A DNA stretch of 38,329 nucleotides from a virus. A program made the translations under genes and the position numbers. The DNA lies in UHGV virus genome UHGV-1488451. One strand, given 5' to 3'. Shown here piece after piece: positions 3,011-35,586 of this stretch. Numbering within the stretch: the first letter of the stretch is position 1; each line of letters starts with the position of its first letter. Under the pieces are notes generated by a model. That model was given only the letters and a program-made list of their open reading frames with translations. It made no database searches and was not told the DNA's origin.

Positions 3011-4135
3011 ATGGCATCAATCAAACGATATGACACCGCCAAAGGAACAAAATGGCGCGTCCAATACCGCACCCCAGACGGCAAAAGCCGCACCAAAACC
3101 GGATTCCGCACCAAAAGCGAAGCCGAAAGATGGGTGGCCACACACACCACCTCCATCATCAATGGCACCTGGGTTGACCCCAACGCAGGCAACATAACCA
3201 TCCAGGCCCTCGGCACACGATGGATGGAAACCCGCACCCACCTGAAACCCTCAACAGCACGCGTCGAAGCCCTCGACTACAAAAACCACGTCCTCCCACA
3301 CTGGGGGCACCGGCGCATCAAAACTATCAAACCGTCGGAAGTGCAAGCCTGGGTGTCAGCCAGCGCCCAATCACCCTCAACCACCAGGCACCACCATGCG
3401 ATCTTGTCGAAGATTCTAGACATGGCCGTCCTCGACAACCTCATACCCGCGAACCCGGCTAAAAGCGTCACCCTGCCCCGCAAGAACAACCCAACAAAGG
3501 TGTACCTCACCATCAGCCAATTGAAGCGCCTAGCGGACGAGGCAACGGTTCGGGGTGAGCTGATCTGGCTGTTGGGAACCACTGGCCTTAGGTGGGGTGA
3601 GGCCGCTGGCTTGCAGGCGCAAGACTTGGACCCGCTGAACGGGCGCATCAGGGTGGCGAGGAACGCAGTAACGGTAGGGGGCGAGGTGGTTGTCGGAACC
3701 CCGAAAACTCATGAGCGGCGCACAGTGGCTTGCCCTGGGCATGTGATGGGGATGCTTGAAGATGCGGCACGTGGTAAGCCGCGCACCGGGTGGTTGTGGG
3801 AGTCGCCTGCGGGCGGGCCTATGCGGCTTCCGGGGAAGGGTTCTTTTTTTCATTCGGCGTTGGGGCGCGTGCGCGCCGAAGACCCGTCGTTTCCTTCGTT
3901 GACTATTCATGGTCTTAGGCATGTGGCAGCCGGACTTTTAGTTTCGGCGGGGGCGAATGTGAAGGTGGTGCAAAAGCAGCTTGGACACAAGTCTGCGGCT
4001 ATGACGTTGGATGTGTATGCGGAGTTGTTTGACGATGACTTGGATGCGGTGCGTGGGGCGTTGGATGCTTTGGTGGGTTCTTTGGGGAATGTCGTCAAAT
4101 TGTCGTCAAATCGGGGTTTTGGTGACGCGGTTTAG
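3011..4135 (+). CDS. int: Tyrosine integrase (phage integrase family)
   Basis: 374 aa; catalytic-domain motifs GLRWGEA, HGLRH, LGH...TLDVYAELF (R, H-x-x-R, H, Y); AAGGA before ATG. Confidence 0.9.
   Translation: MASIKRYDTAKGTKWRVQYRTPDGKSRTKTGFRTKSEAERWVATHTTSIINGTWVDPNAGNITIQALGTRWMETRTHLKPSTARVEALDYKNHVLPHWGHRRIKTIKPSEVQAWVSASAQSPSTTRHHHAILSKILDMAVLDNLIPANPAKSVTLPRKNNPTKVYLTISQLKRLADEATVRGELIWLLGTTGLRWGEAAGLQAQDLDPLNGRIRVARNAVTVGGEVVVGTPKTHERRTVACPGHVMGMLEDAARGKPRTGWLWESPAGGPMRLPGKGSFFHSALGRVRAEDPSFPSLTIHGLRHVAAGLLVSAGANVKVVQKQLGHKSAAMTLDVYAELFDDDLDAVRGALDALVGSLGNVVKLSSNRGFGDAV
4088..4110 (+). repeat. Direct repeat AATGTCGTCAAATTGTCGTCAAA (two TGTCGTCAAA half-units), copy 1; candidate integrase arm-type binding site
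   Basis: Exact 23-bp copy also at 4298-4320; the two copies flank the tRNA-like core. Confidence 0.45.
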
Positions 4136-5264: not shown

Positions 5265-6749
5265 TTATTTTCCCTTCATGGTTTGGATTTGCTGTTGAAT
5301 GTTGGCGATGTCGCGCCGGGCGGCGGCGACACCATCCACGAGGGTGAGGTTTTCACCCTTCGAGTTCTGGCCCAACTGCGGCCAGGGGCCAAGCTGACCG
5401 CTGATGTATTCCACTTGTTGGATTAGTCGGTCAAGCTTTTTGTTGGTTTCCTGCGCCGCGACTTTGGCGTCGTTCAGCGCGGCGACTTGCTCATGTCCGA
5501 ATAGGGACACTGGTCCTCCTTTGATTTGGATGTTTGGGTTTGCGGGTGCGGTCGAGTAGGCGTAGCCCTTCGGCAGTATCAGCGAGGCCAGCTGGTCAAG
5601 GCTGATCCAGTAGCCGTATGGGCTGAACCATGAATCCGCTATCCACACGGCACGCCCCTGGTCACCGTCTCGATATCCCATTGCGGCAATGTAGTGGTAC
5701 ACCACGCCCCCGCCATAGGCTGGGGAGACGGAGCCGTACACGCCGCGCGGGTAGTTCGACGGTGGAGCAACGATGTTGCAGATGACACCATGACCAGCTT
5801 TGACTGAGGTTTTGATGTCGTTCCACAGGCGTTCCTGCTGGTCCGCCGTTGGTGGGTCATTAGGCATCTCTACTGACTGGTATTCAGCCCCTGGGATGTG
5901 TTTGTTCAGCACCTTCGGGAAGAACCCAATCCAGTCTGTGCCGTTGACTGTGGTGCCCAGCTCCACAGCGAAATCGCCTTCCGGCTTGAGAACACCGGTG
6001 GCGGCGAACACCACAGTCTGGGTGGATGCGGGCCCGCAATTGTAGTAGGTGTCCTGTACCACGGCCTCACGGCTGTAGGGGATTTCTACTTCTTCACCAG
6101 CCTGGTTGACCAGGGTTTCACCCGCGCCGCCGCCGGTTGAACCTTCAGGAAGCAGTGACTCCCCCAAGGTCAGGCAGAAGTCGAAGCGGCGTTGCCGGTC
6201 GTCGATTCCGTTGGTTCCTCCATTGATCGCGCGGGTTGCGGCTTTGAATCCTTCGTACCGCTGCCAGCCCTCTAGGTTCGGGTCTGCTGCCTGGTCAGCA
6301 AATTCATTGAGCAGTGGCCGAGCCACCACCCAGTACCAAGCAGCAGCCATGAATCCCCACTTCGGGGTGGCCACCAAATCCGGGTCATTCACAAACAGGT
6401 TCGGGTCGCTGGTGATTCCACGATCATGGCACCATCGACCGAACGACCCGTAGTTGTTCCGTCCCGTGAGCTGTATGGGGCCGCGACCATGGAAACGTGC
6501 ACCATCACCAGGGTAGACGTTGCCGAGATCGCCACGGCCCTCATAGTTGCTGGTGAAGTAGTCATACCCGCCAAGTTCCTGCATGAATTGCAGGCCCACG
6601 GACTCATGTCCGATCTGCGCGCACCACATTGCTGCGCGCGCCACGGTCGTGATGTCCGCGAACTTCATGGCTTCATTCATGGGTTGCACAAACGCCGAAT
6701 CGACGTTGGAACCCATTGCTCGGTTAAGTGTTCCTAGGTCCATATTCAC
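5265..6749 (-). CDS. Modular endolysin: N-terminal GH19 glycosidase domain plus central cysteine-peptidase-like domain
   Basis: GH19-like motifs FHGRGPIQLTGRNNYG and KWGFMAAAWYWV; YYNCGPAS with downstream His suggests a papain-like peptidase; likely start ATG 6743 after GAAAGGAG. Confidence 0.8.
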   Translation of the reverse strand: MNMDLGTLNRAMGSNVDSAFVQPMNEAMKFADITTVARAAMWCAQIGHESVGLQFMQELGGYDYFTSNYEGRGDLGNVYPGDGARFHGRGPIQLTGRNNYGSFGRWCHDRGITSDPNLFVNDPDLVATPKWGFMAAAWYWVVARPLLNEFADQAADPNLEGWQRYEGFKAATRAINGGTNGIDDRQRRFDFCLTLGESLLPEGSTGGGAGETLVNQAGEEVEIPYSREAVVQDTYYNCGPASTQTVVFAATGVLKPEGDFAVELGTTVNGTDWIGFFPKVLNKHIPGAEYQSVEMPNDPPTADQQERLWNDIKTSVKAGHGVICNIVAPPSNYPRGVYGSVSPAYGGGVVYHYIAAMGYRDGDQGRAVWIADSWFSPYGYWISLDQLASLILPKGYAYSTAPANPNIQIKGGPVSLFGHEQVAALNDAKVAAQETNKKLDRLIQQVEYISGQLGPWPQLGQNSKGENLTLVDGVAAARRDIANIQQQIQTMKGK

Positions 6750-6772: not shown

Positions 6773-9700
6773 CTACCCGTATTCGATGGGGAGGATGTAG
6801 TTTCCTTCACGACGCACCCATGCGATGGTTTCGCGCAGTACATCGGGGTCCGGTGCGTTGTCCCACGGGTTGTTCCATTCGGATTCACTACCCAGCTCAC
6901 CGGTGAATGTGTCAGTGGTGAGCCAGATTTGCCCAACGTTCGATACGCTGGCACGCTTGAGTACTTGTTTGGCCTGCTCAACATCGTTTACGTTGTGTAC
7001 CGCGTGCCAGAACCTCAGCGGGTTATGCCCTCTGTAGTGCCCAGGACAAATAGTCTCGTCGTCAATGTAGCGTTGCGCGGATTGTTCGAAAGCCATGAGC
7101 GTATCCGCCGCACCCAGCATGCCCTCAACAGTGTTGCCGCCCGGGTTCGCTGTGATGTAGAAGGCGCTTCCGTACTTTTTGCGGAGTTCCTGGTACAGCG
7201 TTACATAGCCTTGCACTTTGTTTGCCTGGTCGCCCCAGCCATTGACAGCCTCATCAAGGAACACACCGTGAATACGGTGACGCCCGTACCAGTCTATGAA
7301 CTGGTCGATCTCCTTGATGATCTCGGAGTGGCTGCGACCGCCCCACTGGGTGAGCACGTAGGCGATGTTGACCATGCCGAGCGCCGCAGTGGTGGTTAGC
7401 GTCAACTCGTAGTCGTTCTCTTTCTTCGTGCCCACACCACTATGAGGGTTGGCGATGAACGGCCCTGCGATCTGCGGATTGTGAAGGTAGTTGGCGGTGA
7501 CGTCGCGCGCGTGCTCAACCGCCTCCCAATATTTAGGCCAAGAATAGGTGACCGGCGCAAGCCTGCGTGCCCCACGCGTCCACAACTGGAATGGGTGAAT
7601 ATGCAAACCAGGGGTAGGCCCCTCGCGGGTTTCCAACGCTTTCAACAAAGGCGAAGCCTCACTAGCCGCCGGAGCAGGCGCGGGCGCGGGAGGAAGTTTC
7701 TTCAACCGCTCATCAACAACCTCACCAGCCAAAACCCGAACACGCTCCTCATCAGGCTTATCAAGAAGCTTCTTCCACTCCTCAATCGTGATGATCATAT
7801 CCGGGCGCGCCGGGTTGAAATTCCCATTGAAGATGAAATCCTTCTTCACAGTGCCTTCCTGGGCGTTGTTACCAATGATGGTGTTGCCGCCAACCTGCTC
7901 CTTCTTCGTTCCCTTGCGCAACACAATCTTCACCATGTGCGCGCAGTCAGCCTTGGGGTTGTCCTGCGCGTAGCTGTTGCCAATGACGGTGCAGCCGATG
8001 GGGTCTTCCAGTGCGACGGCCGCCCAGTCTTTAGGGCCGTCTGCGGGTGGGCGTAGTTGGTTTTCAAGGCCCACGTTCCAGATGTCGTTGCCTTGGATTT
8101 TTGTGCCGTGCCCGGAGCAGGCGATGCCGTGGTTCCAGGTTTCGCCGATGGTGTTGGCCATGACCACGCTGTACCCGCCCACGCTGATTCCGTTGTCCTT
8201 GGACACGGGGAGCATGTTGCCGGTGATGTTCGTGCGGTAGCACTTGATGGTGAAGCCGATAGGCTCGAAAGCGATTGACTGGTTCTCGGCCATGACCACA
8301 CTGTTCCCAGACACGAGGGTGTCTTTCGGTGCGCCCTGAATCAATGTCTCAGGCCGCAAAGCCGGGTCGGTAGTATCACGCCCACCAATGCCCATGCCGC
8401 AGGATGCGCGGCGAATCTGGTTGCCAATGATCTGGTTGCGGTTCGACTCGTCTTTGATCATGATGCCGAACCCGGATGCACCCTCCTGCGCCGTGTTCTG
8501 CTTCAAACCGCTACCATCAGTCCAGCAGTTCAGAACCAGGGAATCGTTCGTTCCGTTGCCGGTTGGCTTCTCTTTCCGCACAAACCCCTGCAAAAGGAAC
8601 GCATTTGCGCCGGAGTTCATGACCCCGATCTGAACCATCTTCACGTAATCAGCGTTCGTGATCTGCAGCGCCGTGGCAGGCCGCTCACCCGTCACCCAGT
8701 CCATGTCGATAACAAACCCGGACATGTAGCCGCGCCGCAGATTGCCGCCACTGGTTGACTGCATGGCGTTCTTCCCGACGCCGCGTTTCATCTTCAACAC
8801 CGTGGCGTCACCCTGCCCCATCATGACCTTGCCGGAAAGCTTGTCGAGGTTAATCGTGTTCGACAACCCCCACTCACCAGCAGGCAACTGGATTACCTTC
8901 TTCGACGCGTCGTTAATGGCTGCCTGCAAAGCAGTGGTGATGTCAGTGCCCTCGGCTGGTTTGACGTTGATGACACCAGCATCACCTGCGGCTGTGACGA
9001 TTTCCTTGATCTGGGTTTCCACCAGCTTCGTAACAGCCTTGTTGACTTCCTCGGAGATCTTGTTTCCAACTGCCTGCTGGATAGCCTCAGGTGTGGGGGC
9101 CGCGCCACCGCCGCCTTGCGGGTGTTGCCGGAAGTATTCTTCCACGGCCTTGCCGATTTTCTCCGGGTCAACGCCTTCGCCTGCGGGGAGCTTCCCGATT
9201 TGCCTAGTGATCTCGTCACGCACCAGGCCGCTGAGGTCGTTCATTGCCTGCTGCACAGCGTCCTGGGAGGCTGCGCTTGCGGCTTGTTTCGCCTGGTTGA
9301 CGGCTTCGCGTGCTTCGTCTCGTGCGGCGATGGTGTCTTTCTTCACCTGCTCAACCGTGCTTGCCGCCTGCTGTGCTTGGGTGACGGCTTCTTCGGCTTT
9401 GCGTTTGCTTTCCGACGCGGCGGTGGCTGCCTGCTGCGCTTCACCCACGACAGCGGGCGGGTACTCTGTTTGCGCGCCGATCAGGTTGGCTAGGTTCGCC
9501 TCACCTGATTCAGGCAGTGTCACAGTCCACGAGGTTCCATGCACAGTGCCGCCTTCAAGCGTCACTGTGACAGGCCCGGGGAACATGTCAGGGCTGCGGA
9601 AAACCCCACCGGTGCCTTCCATGTGGATTCGCCGCAGTTCCCGCGTGACCACCGTTCCACCCTCGACACGTTCACCCGATGACTGCAGCACCACATAGCA

Positions 9701-9781
9701 GTCAGGGCCGTCAAAAGGTTGCTTGGTGATGCTCTTCAAATCACCAGTCAAAATAGTCATTAGCACCTTCCTAAAGCGCAT
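6773..9781 (-). CDS. Tail fiber/tailspike protein: coiled-coil stalk, beta-helix (pectate-lyase-like) domain, Pro/Ala linker, C-terminal putative glycoside-hydrolase-like domain
   Basis: 1002 aa; A/Q/E-rich stalk, G/N/S/T-rich beta-helix-like repeats, PPAPAPAPAA linker; likely true start ATG at 9760 after AGGAAGG. Confidence 0.7.
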   Translation of the reverse strand: MRFRKVLMTILTGDLKSITKQPFDGPDCYVVLQSSGERVEGGTVVTRELRRIHMEGTGGVFRSPDMFPGPVTVTLEGGTVHGTSWTVTLPESGEANLANLIGAQTEYPPAVVGEAQQAATAASESKRKAEEAVTQAQQAASTVEQVKKDTIAARDEAREAVNQAKQAASAASQDAVQQAMNDLSGLVRDEITRQIGKLPAGEGVDPEKIGKAVEEYFRQHPQGGGGAAPTPEAIQQAVGNKISEEVNKAVTKLVETQIKEIVTAAGDAGVINVKPAEGTDITTALQAAINDASKKVIQLPAGEWGLSNTINLDKLSGKVMMGQGDATVLKMKRGVGKNAMQSTSGGNLRRGYMSGFVIDMDWVTGERPATALQITNADYVKMVQIGVMNSGANAFLLQGFVRKEKPTGNGTNDSLVLNCWTDGSGLKQNTAQEGASGFGIMIKDESNRNQIIGNQIRRASCGMGIGGRDTTDPALRPETLIQGAPKDTLVSGNSVVMAENQSIAFEPIGFTIKCYRTNITGNMLPVSKDNGISVGGYSVVMANTIGETWNHGIACSGHGTKIQGNDIWNVGLENQLRPPADGPKDWAAVALEDPIGCTVIGNSYAQDNPKADCAHMVKIVLRKGTKKEQVGGNTIIGNNAQEGTVKKDFIFNGNFNPARPDMIITIEEWKKLLDKPDEERVRVLAGEVVDERLKKLPPAPAPAPAASEASPLLKALETREGPTPGLHIHPFQLWTRGARRLAPVTYSWPKYWEAVEHARDVTANYLHNPQIAGPFIANPHSGVGTKKENDYELTLTTTAALGMVNIAYVLTQWGGRSHSEIIKEIDQFIDWYGRHRIHGVFLDEAVNGWGDQANKVQGYVTLYQELRKKYGSAFYITANPGGNTVEGMLGAADTLMAFEQSAQRYIDDETICPGHYRGHNPLRFWHAVHNVNDVEQAKQVLKRASVSNVGQIWLTTDTFTGELGSESEWNNPWDNAPDPDVLRETIAWVRREGNYILPIEYG

Positions 9782-23725: not shown

Positions 23726-24940
23726 CTACGCACCCGCCGTCAGCGTCACCTTGACGAAAGCCGAAGGCAGCGGAACCATCAGACCGATACGCTCCTCAGC
23801 ACGCAAAGTAACAAGGTTCTTCTCGAAATCATCAGCGTTGGTGTTCGAGGAATCCACACGCAAACCACCCTTGCGGAGGATGGTGGAACCCTGACGGAAC
23901 GCACCCACAAGGGCGGTACCCTTCGGAATGTTGTTCGTCACAACAGTACGGTAGCCCCACACCGGCGGGTCAACCAGAATGCCACCAACACCGTACTGAC
24001 CCTGGAACGGGCCACCAGCAATGTACTGGCCGTTACCGTCCTTAGCGAGACGCAGAACCTCATAGTCAGCGGTGTTCATGATGATGCCGTCAGCAGTCAG
24101 CGGGGTTGCCTGAGCAACCTTAGAGATCGCACTGTACAGGTCATCAAACCAATTGGCTTTCTTAGCAGACGTCACCGTCTGAATGCCGGAGCGGTTCAGG
24201 ATGCCACGCACATTGCTGCCCGTGCCGTCGCCGCTGATCAGCTGCTTTTCCTCCACAACGGAAAGCTCGTAGATGAGCTGGTTGTTAATCCAGTCAGCCA
24301 CGAACCCGAAGTCCGCGATCATCTCGTCGGAAAGCTTCGTCAACGCGGCGATCTTCGACAGAGATTCAGTCACAATGTCAAGATCAGCGAACCGGACATA
24401 GGGTTTCTGCGCCCCCTCAGCCACAGACGCAGGCGCACCCTCGGCGATGCGGTTGGCCTTCTCCACCAAATATTTGATGGTGGGGAGGTCCACATTCGCG
24501 GAACCCATCAGGTCAGCGGCAACCAGCTTCTCACGACGCTGGTTAACAATGCTGCGCTGGTACATGGTGCCGAAACCATCAACCAGCGGGGTTGTCTTAG
24601 CCGGGTCGCCAGCGGCCTTGAACTCAGGTGCGGAAATCTCCAGGCGTCGGGAACCTTGCTGCTTAAGGCTTTCGCCAGCAGACTTCACGAAATGCTCACC
24701 CAGGGATTTAGCCTCAGGCTGCAGCGGGGTTTCACCGGTGTCGATGTTGCGCAGCTTCTCGAAAACCGAGTTGGCTTCCTTCACCTTTGCAAGTTCAGCG
24801 TCGAGGGCTTCGGCCTCGTGGAGGGCTTCTTTCAGTTCGGCGAGCTGCGCATCTGTCACCTCCTCGCCAAACTGCGAGTAGAGGCTTTTTGCATGGTCAA
24901 ACGCGGCGTCACGACGCTTACGCAGGGTTTTGTTACCCAT
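23726..24940 (-). CDS. Major capsid protein (HK97 fold) with N-terminal coiled-coil delta-like region
   Basis: 404 aa; position after protease; N-terminal coiled coil AQLAELKEALHEAEALDAELAKVKE; AAAGGAG before ATG. Confidence 0.85.
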   Translation of the reverse strand: MGNKTLRKRRDAAFDHAKSLYSQFGEEVTDAQLAELKEALHEAEALDAELAKVKEANSVFEKLRNIDTGETPLQPEAKSLGEHFVKSAGESLKQQGSRRLEISAPEFKAAGDPAKTTPLVDGFGTMYQRSIVNQRREKLVAADLMGSANVDLPTIKYLVEKANRIAEGAPASVAEGAQKPYVRFADLDIVTESLSKIAALTKLSDEMIADFGFVADWINNQLIYELSVVEEKQLISGDGTGSNVRGILNRSGIQTVTSAKKANWFDDLYSAISKVAQATPLTADGIIMNTADYEVLRLAKDGNGQYIAGGPFQGQYGVGGILVDPPVWGYRTVVTNNIPKGTALVGAFRQGSTILRKGGLRVDSSNTNADDFEKNLVTLRAEERIGLMVPLPSAFVKVTLTAGA

Positions 24941-26088
24941 TAGTGTTTCTCCTTTTCCAAGATCATGAGGCGGGCACCCAGCTTGTTCAGGGCGCCCTGG
25001 TTATCGCCGCTCTTCTTGGCGGCATGAGAAAACCCCGGGGGTGGTGTTCCCTCGGGGCTAGTGTCGTTTCCGGTCAGCGCGTCACGCATTGATTTCAGCA
25101 TCAACGCCATTGCCTTCGACATTTCCGCGCCGGACTCGGCGGCTTTCACCGCGAGCACTTCGGTTTCCTGGTTCGCGCCGATAGGAACGACACTGACCTC
25201 GTACAGGCGCACCTTGCGAATCTCGAAAACCCAATTGTCGTTGTCTTTCATTTCCGCGCCTTCGACAACATCAAACGCGAAACTCATTTGCGACAAGCGG
25301 CGCTCTTTCAGCAGACGGTAAACCTGGCTAGCTTTCTCATTATCCAGGTCAAGCTTCGCACGGATTTTCAAACCATGATCATCCTCAACAGCCTCAACCA
25401 CCGTGCCAATATTGCTGAACGGGTCTCGGAAATCATGGCCATACAGCAAAGGCAGCTGATTACCGGATTCCTCCCACTCCTTCAACGTGTCCGCAAACGC
25501 GCCCTTACGGATAACATCACCGTAAGAATCCACATTATCGAACACACTTGCATAGGCGACAATCTCGCCCGCCTCAACCTCAACATCATCAGGCTCTTTA
25601 ACCCGAACCTTCAAATCCTTCAACTTCATAAGGGCAACACCTCCTTTCTCACCCCCAGGCAACTCCGGGGGATTCTCATACCAAGCATCAATCCGCGCCA
25701 ACACATCATCAGACGCGCCAGCCTCAGTAGCACGCTCCACACAAACATCGCGCCCAGGGTCAACCAAATGGAACACCGCACCAGCCCCCTCAAACTTGCT
25801 GACAAGCGCAGCAGGTGGATTCTCCGACACAAACCACAACTCATCAACAATCGTCTCAGGGTCAAGCAGCCACCCCACCAAGCCCCTACGCATAGCCAAC
25901 ACCGCATCAACAACACCAGGCGGAACATCAGCCTCCGGCTTGTCGACGCCCCCCACCACCGCAGCAACCGCATCAAAATCAAAACGCGGCACCCCAGCGC
26001 TAGCATTCTCCGCAACAAACACAGACTTGCCAGCAAACGGGGGGCCAACCACAACGTTAACCGCCACCGTCATCACCTCCATCAACAC
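24940..26088 (-). CDS. Prohead protease (HK97 family) with N-terminal P-loop (Walker A) domain
   Basis: Protease motifs AYASVFDNVDSYGDVIRKGAF, LLYGHD, SVVPIGAN; N-terminal roughly 150 aa has GPPFAGKS and VFHLVD in the same frame; GGAGGAG before start. Confidence 0.75.
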   Translation of the reverse strand: MLMEVMTVAVNVVVGPPFAGKSVFVAENASAGVPRFDFDAVAAVVGGVDKPEADVPPGVVDAVLAMRRGLVGWLLDPETIVDELWFVSENPPAALVSKFEGAGAVFHLVDPGRDVCVERATEAGASDDVLARIDAWYENPPELPGGEKGGVALMKLKDLKVRVKEPDDVEVEAGEIVAYASVFDNVDSYGDVIRKGAFADTLKEWEESGNQLPLLYGHDFRDPFSNIGTVVEAVEDDHGLKIRAKLDLDNEKASQVYRLLKERRLSQMSFAFDVVEGAEMKDNDNWVFEIRKVRLYEVSVVPIGANQETEVLAVKAAESGAEMSKAMALMLKSMRDALTGNDTSPEGTPPPGFSHAAKKSGDNQGALNKLGARLMILEKEKH

Positions 26089-27310
26089 TAGGGGGCTCCT
26101 CCCCCGGGTCCACCGCAGTGTTCAACGGCACCAACAAATCATCCCCACCGTCAACCGAAGGCAGGTTGTTCATCGCACGCGCCTCATTACGTGTCATCCA
26201 CGGGCCACCAACAGCGGTACTGGTGACCTGCGCCTTTTCCTCAAACGAGGCGCGCAGCTTCTCCTCAATGTTGAACTCAAAGTAAACGTCGTCTTCAACG
26301 CCGAGCTTTTCCAGCAGGAACACGTTCAGCGTGTCCTCAATCTGTTTGATGATCGGGCCGAGGGAATCCCCGTAGAGACTCTTCCGAAACTCCCTGACGT
26401 TTGAATAGTTCGCATTATCCAGCAAACCAACCATCGTCGGATTGACCTGGAAAACACTAGCCACCGTCGCAAGGGACAACTTGGCCACATCAACGACATC
26501 CTCATCAGACGCTTTAAGATGCATCGACTTGAAAGACATGCCGTCCTCAAGAATCGGAGTGCCACCCGCACCAGAACCACGCCCCGAATACTGCGACTGC
26601 CAAGCCGCCTTAAACCGGCGACGGTCCATACCCTCCCAACGCGGAGCACCCGCAGGACGCTCAATCACACCACTAATACGCGGCCCGTTCTTCCACAACT
26701 GACCACGATACGCAGCAGATTCCAACTGCTCCTTAAGCAAGTCTTTCAGCGTGCGCACCTTCGAAGCACCACGTTTATAACTCCCCGGGGAATAGCCATG
26801 CACACGAATGATCTTCTCCGCCGGAATCTCCAACGGCTCACCAGTCTTATCATCCGTAATCACAATGGATTTCAACGTCCATTTATCTTCCCACCGCAGA
26901 CGATGAACCCACGTCGGAGAAACAGGGTAAATCTCCGGGCCGTCACCAGCGTCACTGATCACCCAAATGAACTCGTCATACAGGCACAGGTCCATGACAG
27001 ACGCATACAGCAGATCATAGAAAACCTGCCCCGCATTGGCCTTCTTCACTAGCCTCGCCAGCGGGCCGGTTCGCACACGCTCACGCCCACCATCCTCAGC
27101 ATGACGATAAACATGAACCCCAATCGACGCGATATTCCGGGCAATGAAATCCGTGACCGTCCGAAGGTGCGGTTGGGAATCCCAAAGCTGCTCCACACTG
27201 AAACCATCAATCGACGCCGCCAACGATTCAAGAATCGGCAACGCCAAACCCTCAGGCTCAGGAACAGACACCGCCGTCGGAAGAAACCCCAAACGCTGCA
27301 AAATCCCCAC
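26057..27310 (-). CDS. Portal protein
   Basis: 417 aa between terminase and protease; acidic C-terminus. Confidence 0.85.
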   Translation of the reverse strand: MGILQRLGFLPTAVSVPEPEGLALPILESLAASIDGFSVEQLWDSQPHLRTVTDFIARNIASIGVHVYRHAEDGGRERVRTGPLARLVKKANAGQVFYDLLYASVMDLCLYDEFIWVISDAGDGPEIYPVSPTWVHRLRWEDKWTLKSIVITDDKTGEPLEIPAEKIIRVHGYSPGSYKRGASKVRTLKDLLKEQLESAAYRGQLWKNGPRISGVIERPAGAPRWEGMDRRRFKAAWQSQYSGRGSGAGGTPILEDGMSFKSMHLKASDEDVVDVAKLSLATVASVFQVNPTMVGLLDNANYSNVREFRKSLYGDSLGPIIKQIEDTLNVFLLEKLGVEDDVYFEFNIEEKLRASFEEKAQVTSTAVGGPWMTRNEARAMNNLPSVDGGDDLLVPLNTAVDPGEEPPSVDGGDDGGG

Positions 27311-27323
27311 CAGAAATCACCTC

Positions 27324-28943
27324 CTAAACAATCAACAAATAATCATCATCACTATCATCTTCACCAGCGTAAATATCATCGAAATCAGGCTCCTCACCCC
27401 CAAAGAAATCCTCATCCGCATACGCCGAACGCCGCTCCTCAGGCTCATGCCCAAGCAACCACCACGCCACATTGCACGCCACCAAAGGCGAAACATCATT
27501 ACGACTACCCGACCTATCCCAAATGAACAGGTCACCAGCCTTCTTATCCTGCGCACCCTCAACAGCCAGATCAAGAACAGGCTGCGAACGATGCCGAAGC
27601 TCACCAGTCGCAATCGCATCAAAAAACCCAAGCACAGACGAAGACATATCCCCACCCTGCCAAGGCACCACCGTCAAACCAGCCTCCTCCAACAACGGAG
27701 CCAAACCAGCAGCCGGAGCACCCTTCACCTGCATTGCTACACGACCATCAAACCAATCGACGGCCCCAACACGAGCTGCGAACCACTCGGCAACCCATCT
27801 AAAACCGGCTCGTTGGGCGACGACTTCAACGTGCGTTCGCCCATCATCACGAACACCAGCGACCGCGACATAGGCGAACTTGCCGTCCACCGCGACATCA
27901 ACCGCCGCCGCCACAGGATTCCCCTCCGCAACACGGGAACCAGCATCAGCGCAAGCACCCCACACGTCAGCAGGAATCTTCCCCGGCTCCAGGGACTCCA
28001 CCCACACACACATTTTCTCAGTGCGGAAACCATCGGGATTCTTCGTCTCCTTCGCCTCAGCCAACAAATTCTTCAAAGTGATGCCGCCCCAACCCATCGA
28101 CGGGTTAGCCTGACGCAGCGCATCAACGTCCGTTATCTCCGCGTCCTGCGACGCTGACCACGAGAACAACGCCGTGGCCATGTCCTCAGTGTCCCCAAGG
28201 TTGATGCGCTCAACCGCTGAATCACGCAGGGATTTCAGCACAATCGAGCGGGCGTCACCAGCGTTGGAGAACCCCCACAATTGCGACTCTGGGCGCGCCG
28301 CAATGGTTGGCTCAATCGAGTTCCAGCCGTCCCACGTAAGCAGCTCACGCATCTCATCAATGAATGCCGTGTCAGCCGAAGCTGAACGCCCACCTTTACG
28401 GTCAGCAGTAGTCACCGACCATGTGGGCAAAGTGCCGAACACATCCAAGCGGCCAGGCACAGGAACCTTGCACAACTCAATCTGCTTGCTACCGTTCGTT
28501 TCCCGCATCCAAGCGCCGTTGAACTCGTTGTCCTTCGGCCTCGGGTCGTTCGGCAAGTACTCACGTAGCACCTCATTATGAGCGGCGATCTTAAACGCGT
28601 CTTTCAACGTGTCCTCAGCAACAGTAAGTTTCTGAGCTGCGGAAACAATCTCCGATGCGCCGAACACAAACAAACGCCACAAGCCGATCACAACCATCAG
28701 CGTTGTCTTGCCGTTCTGGCGGGCCACCTCAACTATGACGCGCTTAAACCGGAAGTCAGTGCCGTCGAGGTTCAGTTCCAGGCCGTGAATCAACAGCCAT
28801 TTTTGCCACGGGTACAGGCGAATACCTAGGAACTCCGCAAACTCAATGGCCTCAAACCCCTTCGACGTCTCCGGGGTTAGTGGGCGCAACGGCGGGGGAA
28901 ACAGGCGCGGCTGCTCGAAGCCCTTAACCTGCTCGACCACCAC
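27324..28943 (-). CDS. Terminase large subunit
   Basis: 539 aa; Walker A VARQNGKTT; acidic C-terminal tail. Confidence 0.9.
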   Translation of the reverse strand: MVVEQVKGFEQPRLFPPPLRPLTPETSKGFEAIEFAEFLGIRLYPWQKWLLIHGLELNLDGTDFRFKRVIVEVARQNGKTTLMVVIGLWRLFVFGASEIVSAAQKLTVAEDTLKDAFKIAAHNEVLREYLPNDPRPKDNEFNGAWMRETNGSKQIELCKVPVPGRLDVFGTLPTWSVTTADRKGGRSASADTAFIDEMRELLTWDGWNSIEPTIAARPESQLWGFSNAGDARSIVLKSLRDSAVERINLGDTEDMATALFSWSASQDAEITDVDALRQANPSMGWGGITLKNLLAEAKETKNPDGFRTEKMCVWVESLEPGKIPADVWGACADAGSRVAEGNPVAAAVDVAVDGKFAYVAVAGVRDDGRTHVEVVAQRAGFRWVAEWFAARVGAVDWFDGRVAMQVKGAPAAGLAPLLEEAGLTVVPWQGGDMSSSVLGFFDAIATGELRHRSQPVLDLAVEGAQDKKAGDLFIWDRSGSRNDVSPLVACNVAWWLLGHEPEERRSAYADEDFFGGEEPDFDDIYAGEDDSDDDYLLIV

Positions 28944-29232
28944 CGGCCGCCTTCATACGCTCCATCACCGAAACAACCGCCACAGGGCGGTCACGGTCCT
29001 CAGGAATTCCCCGCGCCTCCGGCGTGCACCCCAACGCCCCCAACGCCTTCAACAAATGAGGCCCCAAATACAACGCCTTTGTGCGGTCATACCCAGCATC
29101 AACAGGCACGAAATCAATCTGCCGAGCATACGACAGCGCCAGCTCCTGCAATGCCTTATCTGCACCGGTGACGTTCTCGCCACGCGCCTCAATTGAATCA
29201 AGTACAGCCTGTTCAAGCGGCCCAACAGTCAT
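28924..29232 (-). CDS. Putative terminase small subunit
   Basis: About 103 aa from ATG 29232 (GGAAGGAG upstream); overlaps start of large terminase; assignment by position only. Confidence 0.4.
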   Translation of the reverse strand: MTVGPLEQAVLDSIEARGENVTGADKALQELALSYARQIDFVPVDAGYDRTKALYLGPHLLKALGALGCTPEARGIPEDRDRPVAVVSVMERMKAAGGGRAG

Positions 29233-29364
29233 GATTAAAGCTCCTTCCAGAAACCAGGTCTTGCGCGCGCGATACCCCCAAAAACGAGTGGGGGGAGAGG
29301 ACAGGCCCACCCGGCTCAAATGTCCTGGTCAGGTGTGCTGGTGATTTGCTACCCCCTACCGTTG

Positions 29365-29649
29365 TTACCAGGTTTGGCTGGGTTGTCCGAGGGTTGGTTG
29401 GGGTGGTTGGTTGTGGCGTGCGCGGTTGCAGTTGGTGTGTGTTGGTTTGATGTTGTTGGGGTCGTTTTCGAGGTGTGGGTGTGTGCTTGTGGGGTGGATG
29501 TGGTCGAGGTCGCATGCGTTTGGGGTGTGTGGTGGTGCGGTGTAGTCGATTGGTTGGCCGCAGAGGTAGCAGGGGGTGTTGTTTTCTGCGTGTTGTTGGC
29601 GGAGTTGTTGGCGGAGTTTTTTGTTTGCGCGGGTTTCTTTGAATGGCAT
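29365..29649 (-). CDS. HNH endonuclease
   Basis: CYLCGQPIDY...CDLDHIHP...HLENDPNNIKPTHTNCN (two Cys pairs, H-N-H); adjacent to terminase genes. Confidence 0.8.
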   Translation of the reverse strand: MPFKETRANKKLRQQLRQQHAENNTPCYLCGQPIDYTAPPHTPNACDLDHIHPTSTHPHLENDPNNIKPTHTNCNRARHNQPPQPTLGQPSQTW

Positions 29650-30574: not shown

Positions 30575-31108
30575 TCATTGTTCGTCTTTCTGGATTTCGT
30601 ATCGTTCTTCTTGGTGGTCGCGTTCGAGCCTGTCTGCGCGTTCCCAGTCTGGGAGGGTGTCGTCGTTGGTGTCGTCGTGGGGGTAGGGGTGTGCCATGTG
30701 GGTTTCTTTCTGGGTGAGGTGGATGTGTGCGCCGGGTGTTTCGCCGGGGTGTGCGTAGCGTTTGTGGGTTATCCAGGTTGTGATTTGGCTGTCGTCGTTG
30801 ATTGCTCCTGATTGGGTGAGGGCGTCGCCGAGGGCGCGTTGTAGTTTGTCGAGGTCGGGGGTTTTGGTGTGTGGTTCGGTTTTGTTTTTGAGGCGTTTGG
30901 GGCGGGGGAAGATGAAGATTGCGGTGATGGTGATTGGTCCTTGGATTGGGGGTTTGTGGTTGTGGGTGAGGGTTGCGGTTTGGGTGAGGGCTTTGCGCCA
31001 GGCGGGTAGGTGTTTGCTGGATTCGATACTGCGGCCGCCGCCGATGTAGCGTTTGGAGCCTTGGGGTCTGGGGGTGCCTGGGGTGAAGAATGTGAGCGTT
31101 TGGGTCAT
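30575..31108 (-). CDS. rusA: RusA-like Holliday junction resolvase
   Basis: Motif TPDLDKLQRALGDALTQSGAINDDSQI...K matches the RusA Asp-rich catalytic core. Confidence 0.75.
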   Translation of the reverse strand: MTQTLTFFTPGTPRPQGSKRYIGGGRSIESSKHLPAWRKALTQTATLTHNHKPPIQGPITITAIFIFPRPKRLKNKTEPHTKTPDLDKLQRALGDALTQSGAINDDSQITTWITHKRYAHPGETPGAHIHLTQKETHMAHPYPHDDTNDDTLPDWERADRLERDHQEERYEIQKDEQ

Positions 31109-31238
31109 TGGAACATGCTTTCTATGTGGGGGTGGTGGTTTGTTTTGGGTTGGGGGTGGGTGTTATTTTCGCGCGTGAGGCTTGGGGCGGGTTGGTGGCG
31201 CCTGGTGGCCTGTTGGGCGGAGCGTGGTCACAACAGTC

Positions 31239-32426
31239 TCAAAACGGGGGTTTTGCGGCGTTGGAATTGCCGAACCATACACGACTACCCGCCGAGGGGT
31301 TTTCGGGCGTGTGAGGCGGCAATGAGGGCGGATTTGGGGCATTCTCGTTTCGTCTGGCCGCCCGGAGTTGAGCGTATTCCGGTGGGAGGTCCACCGGCTC
31401 GGGGGGTGTCCGATGGTCGCATTTGCGGGCTACGCTGCGGTTTTCCGGCGAATCCGGGTCGATTCCTCGGGTCGGGACCAGGACAAAACCCCGCTCGTCG
31501 CACCACGGGCAAGCGTCGATTTCGGCGCGTCGTGCCTGCTTGGCTTGGGTTTTCTGGTCCTGGAACCAGCGTCTGGCGGCTGCGCAGGCCCCGCAGGGTG
31601 GCACCTGGTCGCGTGGCAGCCCGGCGTGTTCGCGGCATCGGGGGTCATCCGGCGTGGACCAATCGGCGGGTGTGTCGCCGGTCACGGTTGGGGTGTTGGG
31701 GGGCGGCGCGTCAGCGGCCGCCGAACCCTGGTCGAAACTCGGGGCGGGGGCGTGTGCGCTTGCGCTCTCGCTCGGAAGATTTTCTCTCTTAAGCTCCCCT
31801 TTATTGGTATTGGTCGGGCGCAGGTCCGGGCGCGCGCGTCGCGCGCGAGGAGTGGACATGCGGGTGGCGTCCGGGGTGGACATTTCGGCGTTTTCGCTGG
31901 TAGAGGAAAAATCGCTCGACCTATTCGGATTCATTTCGTTTTCATTTCGATTTCGATTCGCGTTCGATTCGGATTCATTTCGATTTCGATTCGGATTCAT
32001 TTCGCGTTCGGATAGGTCGAGCCTCCCTGTTTCAGTATCGGCGTTGCAGCCCCTCCTGCGGGCCTTTGACTCGCGTTCAATACGGCGTCGATTCGAGCGT
32101 TGTTCGCGGGTCTGCTGATAGTCCCCCCAGTCCCTAAAAGTGAACACGATCACACCATTTTCATTGACTGATTGCGTCCACAACCCCGCATCAACAAGCG
32201 CCTGAATCTGAACCGCGCTCCCCCGCAAAGCCCGCACCTGCTGACGAGGAATCACCCCATCAGTCTCAAATTCAGCGCACCAACTCCCAGCCTTCGCCCA
32301 TAAACCCACCGCAGCATTAGGAAGGGAGGAAATCTTAGGATGCGCATGAAAACGGTCGTCAATCATGAACCAGCTCATTACGCACCGAGTCCAACATTCA
32401 AGCAGACAACACTGATTGACCTGCAC
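31239..32426 (-). CDS. Replication initiation (O-like) protein candidate with internal iteron-encoded low-complexity linker and C-terminal Cys cluster
   Basis: N-terminal folded-looking domain, central NPNRNRNESESNANRNRNENEMNPNR linker encoded by the tandem repeats, C-terminal CGAC...CPWC; start uncertain (32426 GTG, 32378 or 32366 ATG). Confidence 0.5.
   Translation of the reverse strand: MQVNQCCLLECWTRCVMSWFMIDDRFHAHPKISSLPNAAVGLWAKAGSWCAEFETDGVIPRQQVRALRGSAVQIQALVDAGLWTQSVNENGVIVFTFRDWGDYQQTREQRSNRRRIERESKARRRGCNADTETGRLDLSEREMNPNRNRNESESNANRNRNENEMNPNRSSDFSSTSENAEMSTPDATRMSTPRARRARPDLRPTNTNKGELKRENLPSESASAHAPAPSFDQGSAAADAPPPNTPTVTGDTPADWSTPDDPRCREHAGLPRDQVPPCGACAAARRWFQDQKTQAKQARRAEIDACPWCDERGFVLVPTRGIDPDSPENRSVARKCDHRTPPEPVDLPPEYAQLRAARRNENAPNPPSLPPHTPENPSAGSRVWFGNSNAAKPPF
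31914..32020. repeat. Iteron-like array: about 8 tandem copies of an 11-bp unit (nnTTCnnTTCG family) flanked by imperfect inverted repeats; candidate origin of replication
   Basis: Seen directly: GATTCATTTCG / TTTTCATTTCG / ATTTCGATTCG / CGTTCGATTCG ...; 11-bp period; flanks CTCGACCTATTCGGA and TTCGGATAGGTCGAG. Confidence 0.5.
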
Positions 32427-32545
32427 GTTTCCTTATCCAGGAACAAGCCGTACCGGCGAACAGCGAAAATGGCGATGCCTTGCGGCGTGAACAAATTCAC
32501 CCATTCAGGTTTCGGGGCATTCATTTCCCTTATCTTTCATCAAAA

Positions 32546-32573
32546 CCACCCCCACAACACACGCTGCGGGGGT
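32546..32573 (-). terminator. Stem-loop (CACCCCC / GGGGGTG) with T-run on minus strand downstream of SSB gene
   Basis: 7-bp G/C stem; plus-strand AAAA at 32541-32544 gives UUUU after the hairpin on the minus transcript. Confidence 0.4.
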
Positions 32574-32590
32574 GGCAAAAACAAATACTG

Positions 32591-33028
32591 TTAGAACGGA
32601 GGTTCGCCCGTATCCTGCGGGGTGGCCGGGGGTGAAGAACCCCACGCGCCCCCCTGCTGAGAAGGCGCATACCCAGGGCGCGCCTGCGAACCAGCAACCT
32701 CAACATCAGCCACAGACTGCAACGCATCAACCGCCATGACCTTAATCATCGACCGTTGACTACCGTCCTTGGCTTCCCACTCCTCAGTGACCAGCTTTCC
32801 AACCACCGTGACCTTAGAACCCTTCCTCAGGTAGGACATTGGTTCAGCAGCCTCACCCCACAAGGTGACTTGGATGAACAACTGGTTTGTGGTCTCCCAC
32901 TCACCAGTCGGGGTTTTCCTGCTGTCGGAGCACGCGAGGCGGAAGGTGCTGCATGGTTTGCCGTTGGAGGTGAACCGGAGTTCAGGGTCGCTGACCAGTC
33001 TTCCGGGGAAATGCTGGTACGGAATCAT
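32591..33028 (-). CDS. ssb: Single-stranded DNA-binding protein
   Basis: N-terminal GRLVSDPELRFTSNGKPCSTFRLA (OB-fold SSB signature), Gly/Gln-rich tail ending in acidic-aromatic tip EPPF. Confidence 0.85.
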   Translation of the reverse strand: MIPYQHFPGRLVSDPELRFTSNGKPCSTFRLACSDSRKTPTGEWETTNQLFIQVTLWGEAAEPMSYLRKGSKVTVVGKLVTEEWEAKDGSQRSMIKVMAVDALQSVADVEVAGSQARPGYAPSQQGGAWGSSPPATPQDTGEPPF

Positions 33029-33894
33029 GGCATGCCTCCCTCGGCTTCGGCCGCGAGGGCTTCCATCTCAGCAAGGGTGTTGTAGCGCTCACTGTAGGCG
33101 TGCTCTGCGGCTTCGCGCTGCGGGTGATCGGCGGGGATTCCCCTGGCTTGCTCGGCCACCGTGTTCAGGTCGTCGATGCTGGCTGCGGTGTTGAATGCCG
33201 CGATGATGCTGTCAACGTCGATCTGTGGTGCCTGCTTGGATTCGAGGGCGGCTTTCACGCCTGAGGCGCCGCGCTGCTGGCGGGGCTTGTCGAGGCGTGT
33301 GGCCTTGGCCTGCACGCGGCTTTCCTCGAGCTGCAAATCCTCAGCCGTGTAGGTGATTCCCAACAACACGTCGGGGGCCAGTTTGCGGCACACCTCGGAT
33401 AGTGCCTTGGCGTAAAGCATGGCTTGCGGGTCGCTTTGGTACTTCTTGTTTGAGGTGTAGCCTGCACGCTTTGCCCGGTCGATGGTCCATGTACTGGTTT
33501 CCTGCTCACCCTTCGGCGAGGTTCCAGTCACCGTGACGCTTTCATCTGTGGACTCAATGGTGTCAAACCTGTAGCCGCGCGCCTTCAAAAGCCCAGACAT
33601 AGTGCGCGCGTAGATCGCGGGTGTGCCGTGCACAACGAAAATCTGCTGCAGGGACTGCAGGGGCTTCAACCCCAATTCAGCACCGTAGAGTATTGCCGCT
33701 GCTCCGTTTTCCGGCTTGCCCTTGTAGGTCTGTGGCACCATGTCGGTGCTGCACAATGCCACCGCTAGTTTGTGGGCGGTTTCCATTGCCTGTGCTTGCC
33801 GCATTAGCAGGTCTATGGCGTCGTCACTGACGTCGCCGGTGGGCATTACCTCAGCCTCGGCGGGTGGGGTGATGCGGTCGATTTCCTGGCTCAC
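33025..33894 (-). CDS. recT: RecT-like single-strand annealing protein
   Basis: NGAAAILYGAELGLKPLQSLQQIFVVHGTPAIYA resembles the RecT family core; paired with YqaJ-like exonuclease. Confidence 0.7.
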   Translation of the reverse strand: MSQEIDRITPPAEAEVMPTGDVSDDAIDLLMRQAQAMETAHKLAVALCSTDMVPQTYKGKPENGAAAILYGAELGLKPLQSLQQIFVVHGTPAIYARTMSGLLKARGYRFDTIESTDESVTVTGTSPKGEQETSTWTIDRAKRAGYTSNKKYQSDPQAMLYAKALSEVCRKLAPDVLLGITYTAEDLQLEESRVQAKATRLDKPRQQRGASGVKAALESKQAPQIDVDSIIAAFNTAASIDDLNTVAEQARGIPADHPQREAAEHAYSERYNTLAEMEALAAEAEGGMP

Positions 33895-34322
33895 TGGTTG
33901 CCCTCCTTATTGGGGTTTACGACGTAGATTTCGTAGCCTCGGCCGTAGAACCCGTTGTCTTCGTAGCCTTTGGCGGTGATGATTTCGGTGGCCTTGACTT
34001 CAGACTCTGCCCACACGAACACTCGAACGATGTGGTCGCCGATTGCGTTGTAATCCTGGGTGAGGTCTTCTTCGGCGATCTTCACGCCGGTGATTGCATG
34101 GTCGTAGGGCGCAAGGCGGCTTATCCACCAGTTCCCCGCGCTGCAGCCTCCGCAGCCCTCGTTGCCTACGGTGTAAAGTCGGACACCGTTGTCGAGGATG
34201 AGGGCTTCATCGTCGTCATCGACTTCAACGATTTTACGGCCGATGAGAAGTTCTTTGAGGTCTTCGAGGCTTTCACCATCGATTTTCTTATCCCAGTCGC
34301 CTTCGTAGTGGTTGAAGGTCAT
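33891..34322 (-). CDS. Hypothetical protein
   Basis: 143-aa ORF; contains GCGGCSAGNWW; no recognised family. Confidence 0.45.
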   Translation of the reverse strand: MTFNHYEGDWDKKIDGESLEDLKELLIGRKIVEVDDDDEALILDNGVRLYTVGNEGCGGCSAGNWWISRLAPYDHAITGVKIAEEDLTQDYNAIGDHIVRVFVWAESEVKATEIITAKGYEDNGFYGRGYEIYVVNPNKEGNQ

Positions 34323-34579
34323 TGTTCAAGCTCCTTTGCTTCCGTAATGCCGTCTTTGGTGAGCAGGTGGGTTACACCACGGGGGTGGTTGTCCATGTTG
34401 ATTGCGGCGGGCTGGAAAATCCCCACCCATTCGCCGCTTATGTGCTTTTTCACCAGGTCTTGGCACTGCATGTACGTTTCGGCCTGCACCGCCAAGATCA
34501 TGTCAGGGTGGGCGGGCGCCCACTCAGGGTGCGTGTTTTTACGGTACTTCTCGTGAAATATCACGTAAAGGGTTTTCAT
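34319..34579 (-). CDS. Hypothetical protein
   Basis: 86-aa ORF, translationally coupled to neighbours. Confidence 0.4.
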   Translation of the reverse strand: MKTLYVIFHEKYRKNTHPEWAPAHPDMILAVQAETYMQCQDLVKKHISGEWVGIFQPAAINMDNHPRGVTHLLTKDGITEAKELEQ

Positions 34580-35586
34580 AGCTTTGCTTTCAGGTTCGGG
34601 CGCAGCATGACCCCACCGCGTGAGGTTGCTGCGCGGGTAGCGATGGTGGTTTCACCCATGAGGGCTTTTTTGGCGTTGCCCATGCGGTCAAGCAGCCTGG
34701 TTTTCGCCGCTGTCGCTGCCTGCGCGGCGGCTTTCTCCATGCGCAGGGCGGTGAGGATTTCTTCGGCCTCGGCAGGGGTGAGCTGCACTTCCTCATCCGG
34801 GTTGATGTCCGTATGCAGGCCCCGCACTGTTTGGTAGGTGCTGGTCGTGTCATCAAGCGGCGGCGGAGTGTCTTCCTGCAGGGATGCCCACCAGCCTTTG
34901 GCCACGTCCACCAGCCCGTCGAACAGGTCAGCGTCCCAGGGGATTTCATGTTCCTCGGCTTGGTGGAACGGCCCCAGCACAAGAACACTTGCCTGGTGAA
35001 TGCCGCTGACTCCCATTTGCCACACCACTTGCGTGTGGTAATCCGCTGGCACACTGTCTGGTTCGCCGGGTTTCCCCCAGTCGTCGAGGCTTCTAGCGGT
35101 TTTGCATTCCAGGATTCGGAATGCCCTGCCCCTGCGTGCCCTGCGGTCGAGTGTGGCCAGGTTGGGGAATGGCAGGTCATCACGGGTGTAGGCGACTTCC
35201 CCGGCGTTTAGTTGCCATGTTTTGGGTTGGCGGCGTGCCCACCAGTCAGCTAGCGCCAACTCGGCGGCGTGCCCCCAGTCCGCAATGTCTTGTTTCATCG
35301 GGGTTGGCGGGATTCGGCCGGCCATTTCGTGCCACAGGGTGTATTGGCTGGTGAATCTGCTGACTCCGAGGATTGCTGGGATTTTCGACGCGGTGATCAT
35401 TCCCCGCCATTCGTCGGAGCCTGGCGGCGGGGGATTCTTGACGGTTCGGCTTGTCATCGTCACAGCACCAGGATTAGCGACAGTGTGAAGATCAGGGTGC
35501 ATAGCGCACCGAGGATTGCGATGCTGATGACTGGTGGTGGTTCTTGGAATCGTTGTGGGGGTTTGCGGTGGGTCATAGTAGTTCAC
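34576..35586 (-). CDS. YqaJ-like (lambda-exonuclease-type) recombination exonuclease
   Basis: ITASKIPAILGVSRFTSQYTLWHEM and ILECKTARSLDDWG...QVVWQMGVSG match the YqaJ PD-(D/E)XK pattern; true start probably an internal Met. Confidence 0.7.
   Translation of the reverse strand: MNYYDPPQTPTTIPRTTTSHQHRNPRCAMHPDLHTVANPGAVTMTSRTVKNPPPPGSDEWRGMITASKIPAILGVSRFTSQYTLWHEMAGRIPPTPMKQDIADWGHAAELALADWWARRQPKTWQLNAGEVAYTRDDLPFPNLATLDRRARRGRAFRILECKTARSLDDWGKPGEPDSVPADYHTQVVWQMGVSGIHQASVLVLGPFHQAEEHEIPWDADLFDGLVDVAKGWWASLQEDTPPPLDDTTSTYQTVRGLHTDINPDEEVQLTPAEAEEILTALRMEKAAAQAATAAKTRLLDRMGNAKKALMGETTIATRAATSRGGVMLRPNLKAKL

Follow-up and report, generated by a model that had tools for sequence, protein, structure and literature searches.

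The protease gene in the head module of the UHGV virus genome UHGV-1488451, a viral DNA stretch of 38,329 nucleotides that was analysed whole and is called the window here, encodes a P-loop domain resembling polynucleotide kinases in frame with a prohead protease of the HK97 type. The preferred reading, held with slightly better than even confidence, is that this is a head gene with two products, the longer of which would bring its kinase-like domain inside the procapsid. Few virus assembly systems are understood as well as the head modules of the HK97 type, yet this conserved enzyme-like domain has gone unremarked on the protease: in isolated phages the fusion is labelled 'head maturation protease', and it is also present in many prophages. 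No account of the domain or of the fusion turned up in searches of the literature. The initial annotation of the window had called such a module not standard for HK97-type heads, which holds for the model phages, but the fusion is recurrent (PHROG 9644) and already present in GenBank records. The gene would represent a recurrent, unannotated variant of familiar themes (a head protease, a nested start in the same frame, and a capsid-targeted cargo) joined to a polynucleotide-kinase-like domain.

The open reading frame (ORF) occupies positions 24940..26088 of the minus strand and, read from the GTG at 26088, encodes 382 aa with the P-loop domain, a linker, an S78 prohead protease, and a helical C-terminal tail. 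As had been proposed, the 150-aa P-loop domain and the protease part are joined in one frame with zero stop codons between them, and the fusion is kept in all fused lineages examined. The described extension of some 150 aa ahead of the recognisable protease also stands, as MKLKDLKV opens at M154, with AYASVFDN downstream. The portal stop codon, a TAA at 26057-26059, falls inside the long ORF, and the portal and long-form ORFs therefore overlap, in agreement with the same annotation. The protease part with its tail (24940..25629, minus strand) matches Peptidase_S78 (PF04586) over aa 167-315 (4.8e-37; 128.1 bits, cut-off 21) and TIGR01543 (4.2e-44; 150.1 bits, cut-off 59). H218 (25435-25437, minus strand) and S269 (25282-25284, minus strand) are the candidate catalytic pair and are invariant in 138 of 138 aligned proteases. 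By these matches, the protease part is a Peptidase S78 / HK97 family prohead protease of typical form. As in HK97 gp4, the S78 protease (here the C-terminal 229 aa) has invariant His and Ser, and its gene sits between those of the portal and of a propeptide-bearing major capsid protein; HK97 gp4, in contrast, has neither an N-terminal enzyme domain nor an internal start.

The extension matches the profile of its own family at 3.9e-41 and, searched alone, also matches PHROG 9644, whose 341-position profile (phrog_9644) spans both halves and matches the whole ORF at 4.3e-94. An exhaustive HMMER search with the domain recovered 358 homologous 50%-identity clusters at E<=1e-3, and a word-indexed protein search with the domain alone returned one match only. 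Among the best 150 homologues, Pfam AAA_33 was found in 101 (E<=1e-3) and Peptidase_S78 in 52. Compared with 97%-identical viral contigs, the extension carries 14-16 synonymous and 6-7 non-synonymous differences, indicating purifying selection. An AlphaFold (AF2) model of the domain, built from a 59-sequence alignment, reached a predicted local distance difference test score (pLDDT) of 90.7 and a predicted template modelling score (pTM) of 0.84; the whole protein modelled from its single sequence had a pLDDT of 34 and was unusable. The domain model predicts with confidence that the extension folds as a P-loop kinase, with a three-layer alpha/beta core and a lid, in line with the nucleotide-binding fold that the initial annotation had expected.

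These results bear on the explanation that the long ORF is an artefact, in which the protease would start only at M154 and the upstream stretch would be non-coding or the product of a sequencing or frameshift error. A very strong Shine-Dalgarno (SD) sequence followed by an ATG at M154 is what such an artefact would show. However, the profile match, the confident predicted fold, the substitution counts, and the presence of the same uninterrupted ORF in isolated, independently sequenced phages, whose proteins align with that of the window from end to end, exclude this explanation, leaving it a minute residual probability.

The folded domain (aa 9-140; 25669..26064, minus strand) is predicted to run through beta1, P-loop, alpha1, beta2, alpha2-3, beta3, alpha4, beta4, and the lid helices. 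PHROG polynucleotide-kinase profiles match it weakly and, when the family profile was searched against PDB sequences, polynucleotide kinases were matched weakly as well, across the whole domain. With phmmer, the domain found no more than a chance match among PDB sequences, and NCBIfam contains no model for it. Alignment by hhalign to the T4 Pnk kinase domain, with the T4 sequence entered by hand, gave a probability of 93% and an aligned range consistent with the PDB-profile matches. This alignment sets D39, the Asp after beta2, on the T4 general base Asp35 and R119 on Arg122, and offers no clear counterpart for the essential Arg126. A Walker A motif and a putative lid arginine are common to the domain and to T4 Pnk, Clostridium thermocellum Pnkp, Pnkp1, archaeal PSTK, and AAA_33. 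Identity to polynucleotide 5'-kinases and other P-loop kinases is, on the other hand, only 14-17%. Unlike polynucleotide 5'-kinases, the domain is highly compact, at about 135 aa, with neither a phosphatase nor a ligase as partner, and shows family-specific DxD, DPG, and WY..PP motifs; furthermore, the window copy lies below the Pfam thresholds and lacks one lid arginine. With AAA_33 (cut-off 27 bits), the homologue from phage BFK20 scores below the threshold (16.5) and proteins P0194 and P0242 above it (30.6 and 30.9).

The earlier assignment of the Walker A motif GPPFAGKS (aa 15-22; 26023..26046, minus strand) is borne out by the homologues: G15, G20, and K21 are invariant (263 of 263 aligned in a set of 267 homologues), and position 22 is always S or T. 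The segment VFHLVD (aa 105-110), previously regarded as Walker B-like, is probably not one and was rejected, as it forms strand beta4, after which comes a DPG turn that is conserved. The acidic residues that are conserved are instead D37 and D39, in the D37-F-D39 (DxD) motif after beta2 (25972..25980, minus strand), a candidate Mg2+ ligand and general base. Metal and substrate are handled by a DxD-type pair in shikimate and gluconate kinases, and this pair appears the better candidate for that role here. Among the 267 homologues, D37 is kept in 266, D39 in 263, R67 in 257, the lid arginine R119 (25732..25734, minus strand) in 253, and R125 in 250. The window has Ala at codon 125 (25714-25716, minus strand), the position of the second lid arginine. 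On the residues retained, the domain is presumably catalytically active.

The lid arginines are relaxed specifically in the protease-fused copies, where one of them is gone in 15 of 46 (R119 replaced by Q in 8; R125 lost in 7, window included), compared with none of the 67 HNH-fused copies, while Walker A is kept in 46 of 46. Such a pattern could be produced by a regulator acting in cis, a nucleotide-binding domain that would set when or where the long-form protease is active, for example by keeping it blocked until assembly, with phosphotransfer as a secondary matter. The protease-only product that would be made in parallel, described below, is compatible with this idea as well. It is nonetheless considered improbable, given that the same domain also occurs free and on partners that are not proteases (scaffold, HNH), and that D37, D39, and R67 are mostly retained in the protease-fused forms.

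The gene has two sets of start signals and probably gives rise to two proteins: a long form with kinase-like domain and protease, and a short form consisting of the protease alone. For the long form, the SD noted in the initial annotation is indeed present: GGGGGAGGAG (26096..26105, minus strand; duplex energy, dG, -11.8) ends 7 nt 5' of GTG 26088 and could serve this codon or the ATG at 26082. However, homologues begin 6-7 residues before the Walker-A glycine, and the equivalent position in the window is the GTG at 26067-26065, which has its own SD, GGAGGTGA (26072-26079; the whole signal at 26065..26079, minus strand), with the more favourable dG of -13.8. Homology therefore favours 26067, and the true long-form start may be this one instead of 26088. 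In the fused lineages, a moderate SD precedes the upstream start, which mostly overlaps the portal stop.

For the short form, a very strong internal SD had been overlooked. This sequence, AGAAAGGAGGTG (25638..25649, minus strand), codes for E-K-G-G in the linker and is followed, with a spacing of 8 nt, by the ATG of M154 (25627..25629, minus strand), the putative start of the protease-only product. It can pair with the 16S rRNA tail over 12 bases, and its dG of -19.8 beats all 346 control in-frame start-like codons. In BFK20, phi674, and LGCM, the border consists of AAR-GGR-GGN, a few bases, ATG or GTG, and then Lys or Arg. In a first set of distinct fused lineages, a border ATG or GTG is found in 18 out of 18, with a median SD duplex energy of -16.2 kcal/mol compared with -3.1 for the 346 controls, and 12 of the junctions beat every control. 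Viral contigs supplied another 48 distinct fused genes, and the linker contains a start-like codon in 47 of them (ATG or GTG in 45); 87% of those 47 lie beyond the 5th percentile of the controls. The fused lineages are mutually related, and hence not independent trials, although their mutual identity is low. No internal start site is present at the junction of the P-loop-HNH fusion in a C. diphtheriae prophage. A programmed frameshift at the border, suggested by the SD and the sequence CTT ATG A, was dropped, since ATGA follows from the conserved Met-Lys start.

The initial annotation had also raised the possibility of translation only at the internal Met. Production of the protease alone is very likely, given the conserved internal SD and start; the restriction to that start does not hold, as the upstream domain has a start of its own and is under purifying selection. 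Of the two forms, the long one would probably be the minor product and the protease-only one the major. The arrangement recalls the nested in-frame head genes C and Nu3 of lambda, where one frame in the protease/scaffold region gives a long and a short product with a common C-terminus by means of an internal ribosome-binding site; an internal in-frame start with a ribosome-binding site, conserved in relatives, is likewise found here. In lambda, however, it is the scaffold that forms the short product and the protease the long one, whereas here the protease would be the short product, extended in the long form by an unrelated enzyme domain.

The fusion extends well beyond the window. By tblastn, the extension was found under the 'head maturation protease' genes of the Corynebacterium phages BFK20 and phi673/674, and, in the LGCM phages, under a gene annotated 'capsid and scaffold protein'. 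The window protein aligns end to end with those of BFK20, phi674, and LGCM at 55-57% identity, which answers for the conservation in related phages that had been left to check. Among about 55 of 80 viral contigs fetched via the P-loop motif, the order is portal, P-loop-S78 fusion, and capsid, and the uninterrupted fused ORF persists in about 60 distinct lineages whose identity to one another is low. Judged by these matches, the fusion is widespread and recurrent (PHROG 9644), with dozens of distinct prophage and metagenome lineages. The S78 protease is not the only partner, since N-terminal P-loop fusions also occur to ClpP-type prohead proteases, head scaffolding proteins, S78 proteases fused to the major capsid protein (MCP), and collagen-like proteins. 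P-loop-HNH fusions directly upstream of terminase genes make up 67 of the 267 fetched homologues and keep all catalytic-type residues. In some loci, free copies stand just before the HNH gene or the gene for the small terminase subunit (TerS), and three fetched loci (L169, L253, and L250) have a free P-loop gene after the protease.

This distribution also bears on the idea of an accessory enzyme of the moron type, for instance an RNA/DNA repair or counter-defence kinase, that would have nothing to do with head assembly, would happen to sit at gene borders in the late operon, and would have become fused through neutral loss of a stop codon. Of the 164 loci fetched by protease similarity (L001-L164), the fusion is present in 30, and 133 lack any P-loop gene within 3 kb; the domain is therefore an accessory one and dispensable for this type of protease. 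Its position is variable (ahead of TerS, between portal and protease, or downstream of the protease), and the weak matches to PHROG polynucleotide-kinase profiles would be in keeping with such an enzyme. Against it, the stop-free fusion is kept in those low-identity lineages, the domain is invariably found inside the packaging and head module, and the copied C-terminal tails described next argue for a selected targeting. A moron-type origin thus seems improbable, to about the same degree as the regulator in cis.

The C-terminal tails come from two loci where the P-loop gene is free. In a Microbulbifer prophage (L169, 4297-5480), a ClpP-type protease ending in YNHRTPLYARLTEIQTRAS is adjacent to a P-loop protein ending in YNHRTPLYARLTEIAARA, and both terminate in YNHRTPLYARLTEI. 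In a viral contig with an S78 protease (L253, 3675-4983), the protease ends in LEHRELLKLLDARLLKKV and the free P-loop protein in LEHRELLKLLDKRLKG, with LEHRELLKLLDxRL as the common terminus. The third locus of this kind, L250, shows no clear tail similarity, and no other protein in the window was found to have the C-terminal tail of its protease. For the Microbulbifer protein P0151, a search of viral contigs found no close relatives. The C-terminus of the HK97 protease reportedly carries the protease, together with fused foreign cargo, into the prohead. The P-loop protein has an element in common with a procapsid-core protein in both arrangements: the whole protease by fusion in the window, and a copied peptide in L169 and L253. 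The main argument for delivery of the domain into the procapsid is this combination of three kinds of procapsid-core partner (S78 proteases, ClpP-type proteases, and scaffolding proteins) with the copied tails. In addition, the GenBank entry for BFK20 gp5 states 'experimentally confirmed presence among structural proteins', which is consistent with procapsid delivery.

In the mechanism proposed for this delivery, the long form would be translated from the upstream start, coupled to or overlapping the end of the portal gene, and would consist of a polynucleotide-kinase-like P-loop phosphotransferase domain of about 16 kDa, a short linker, and the S78 prohead protease. The short form, the protease alone, would be translated at the border of the two domains, where the internal SD and its ATG are conserved, and would probably be more abundant. 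Both forms would have in common the protease body and the C-terminal tail, which takes proteases of the HK97 type into the assembling procapsid, so that the long form would bring the kinase-like domain inside. There, the domain could act while the head matures or is packaged, or remain as an internal protein and exit together with the DNA.

A serious rival, although on balance unlikely, is that the domain is not head cargo at all but a packaging cofactor, working with HNH and terminase at cos cleavage and packaging initiation; the protease fusion would then only secure late, portal-coupled expression or proximity to the portal vertex. Packaging dependent on an HNH endonuclease has reportedly been described for cos phages of the HK97 kind. 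The window has the same gene order as those modules, HNH-TerS-TerL-portal-protease-MCP (TerL being the large terminase subunit), all on the minus strand; BFK20 has this layout too, as well as 13-nt 3' cos ends. The P-loop-HNH fusions with every catalytic-type residue kept, the free copies directly before HNH or TerS, and the fact that the closest folds work on nucleic-acid ends are also in favour of a packaging role. On the other hand, the HNH-dependent modules as described are not known to include a P-loop partner of HNH, while here the domain sits alternatively on HNH or on the protease. A packaging cofactor would leave unexplained the fusions to scaffolding proteins and to two unrelated protease families, as well as the copied protease tails. 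Prohead proteases are, moreover, generally thought to be degraded before packaging begins.

Several observations weigh against delivery of an active kinase into the procapsid. Both protein products and the encapsidation are deduced from gene sequences, and the GenBank remark on BFK20 gp5 may refer to a protease fragment. A free P-loop gene with no targeting tail lies between portal and protease in L172 and about 17 other loci; encapsidation may thus not hold across the family, many lineages keeping the domain unfused and tail-less. The domain is also often in or beside an HNH gene near the terminase, so it need not, as a rule, be covalently attached to a protein of the procapsid. Regarding the enzyme itself, the window domain finds no Pfam match at E<=1 and does not reach the AAA_33 threshold, and catalysis may be weakened by the absence of the near-invariant R125 in the window and of one lid arginine in a third of the protease-fused copies. 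Finally, ends cut by HNH and terminase nucleases normally carry a 5'-phosphate, so there is no obvious need for a DNA-end kinase.

A further proposal, doubtful but not negligible, would make the window gene the type example of a widespread, undescribed class, in which a Pnk-like enzyme is loaded via fusion to the protease or scaffold, or via a copied tail, is ejected with the DNA, and phosphorylates a nucleic-acid end (phage cos ends, or damaged host or phage RNA/DNA) at the start of infection. The nearest folds and the partnership with HNH point to nucleic-acid ends, and a 5'-OH end as the substrate is a guess only. Accessory proteins delivered through the head include the T4 internal proteins, which have a capsid targeting sequence, and MuF-toxin fusions. 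P1 DarB carries an N-terminal signal for capsid targeting (PMC9024508). As in those cases, an accessory protein would here enter the head via a short signal or via fusion to a head-assembly protein, with the difference that the vehicle is a protease, a scaffold, or its C-terminal peptide, and the cargo a P-loop kinase-like domain that would be present in the particle and might be ejected.

Were the domain encapsidated, simple siphophages would have a hitherto unrecognised ATP-dependent step or an ejected enzyme, the protease tail would offer a natural route for loading cargo, and the HNH/terminase machinery that cuts DNA ends would be tied to the head interior. If the ejected-enzyme class is real, it would add a new kind of ejected enzyme to small temperate siphophages, together with a natural tag for protein delivery. 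The question lends itself to direct tests, since Corynebacterium glutamicum is a host of BFK20 and phi673/674.

The window itself is a near-complete temperate siphophage genome with 57% G+C and zero tRNA genes. The portal gene (26057..27310, minus strand; Phage_portal 8.3e-74) has the stop that overlaps the long-form start. In BFK20, an extra 93-aa gene, gp4 (L001:3205-3486), lies between the portal and the P-loop-protease gene, its stop overlapping the gp5 start (ATGA), and has no counterpart in the window. On the other side, the start of the major capsid protein gene (23726..24940, minus strand; Phage_capsid 6e-39), which encodes an N-terminal coiled propeptide, overlaps the protease stop. 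The gene at 27324..28943 (minus strand) probably encodes the large terminase subunit, judging from its position in the module and a weak TerL_ATPase match of 23.0 bits (E 7.2e-05), under the Pfam cut-off of 23.7 bits; the small subunit is encoded at 28924..29319 (minus strand; Terminase_6 2.3e-17).

Upstream of TerS, a stand-alone HNH endonuclease of 94 aa is encoded at 29365..29649 (minus strand; Pfam HNH, 27.6 bits against a cut-off of 21.4). PHROG scans of the ORFs overlapping this region gave zero matches, and the gene surfaced through a profile built from the HNH parts of P-loop-HNH fusions (E 2.7e-14), and then through Pfam. It is thus homologous to the HNH domains that carry the same P-loop domain in other phages.

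Elsewhere in the window are found an integrase gene (3011-4135, plus strand), an endolysin gene (5265-6749, minus strand), tail genes, and a RecE/RecT/SSB/RusA module (30575-35586, minus strand). An ORF of 1002 aa in the tail/lysis region (6773-9781, minus strand) has phrog_32265 as its sole family match, 7.6e-11 over 115 aa. A megablast of the region against isolated phages gave no match. Four IMG/VR contigs (L085-L088) encode a 97%-identical protease, and in cultured genomes the closest match reaches only 54% (Corynebacterium sp.).

Some further features concern the homologues with other partners. Free P-loop proteins encoded before TerS and HNH-P-loop fusions have a conserved C-terminal [ST]-R-x-W motif (P0212, P0169, P0205, P0216, P0224, P0225, P0231, P0247, P0030, P0125, P0149, and P0196; by locus, for example, L173:4001-4501 and L174:4001-4456), which may be a docking peptide. 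The P-loop-HNH fusions show RG[YL]GW at the junction, and P0004 (429 aa) has two tandem P-loop domains followed by an HNH domain. Gp84 of Mycobacterium phage Weirdo19 (L004:2755-3243), annotated as 'terminase small subunit', corresponds to the P-loop domain. Similarly, in PHROG 4581, which has the same label, positions of about 125-265 correspond to the P-loop domain and the remainder matches HNH, so that the name looks like a misnomer. The collagen-like fusions (P0005, P0016, P0082, P0013, P0041, and P0043) consist of the P-loop domain, collagen-like repeats, and a C-terminal domain that also ends some 'portal protein' PHROGs (1289 and 2271).

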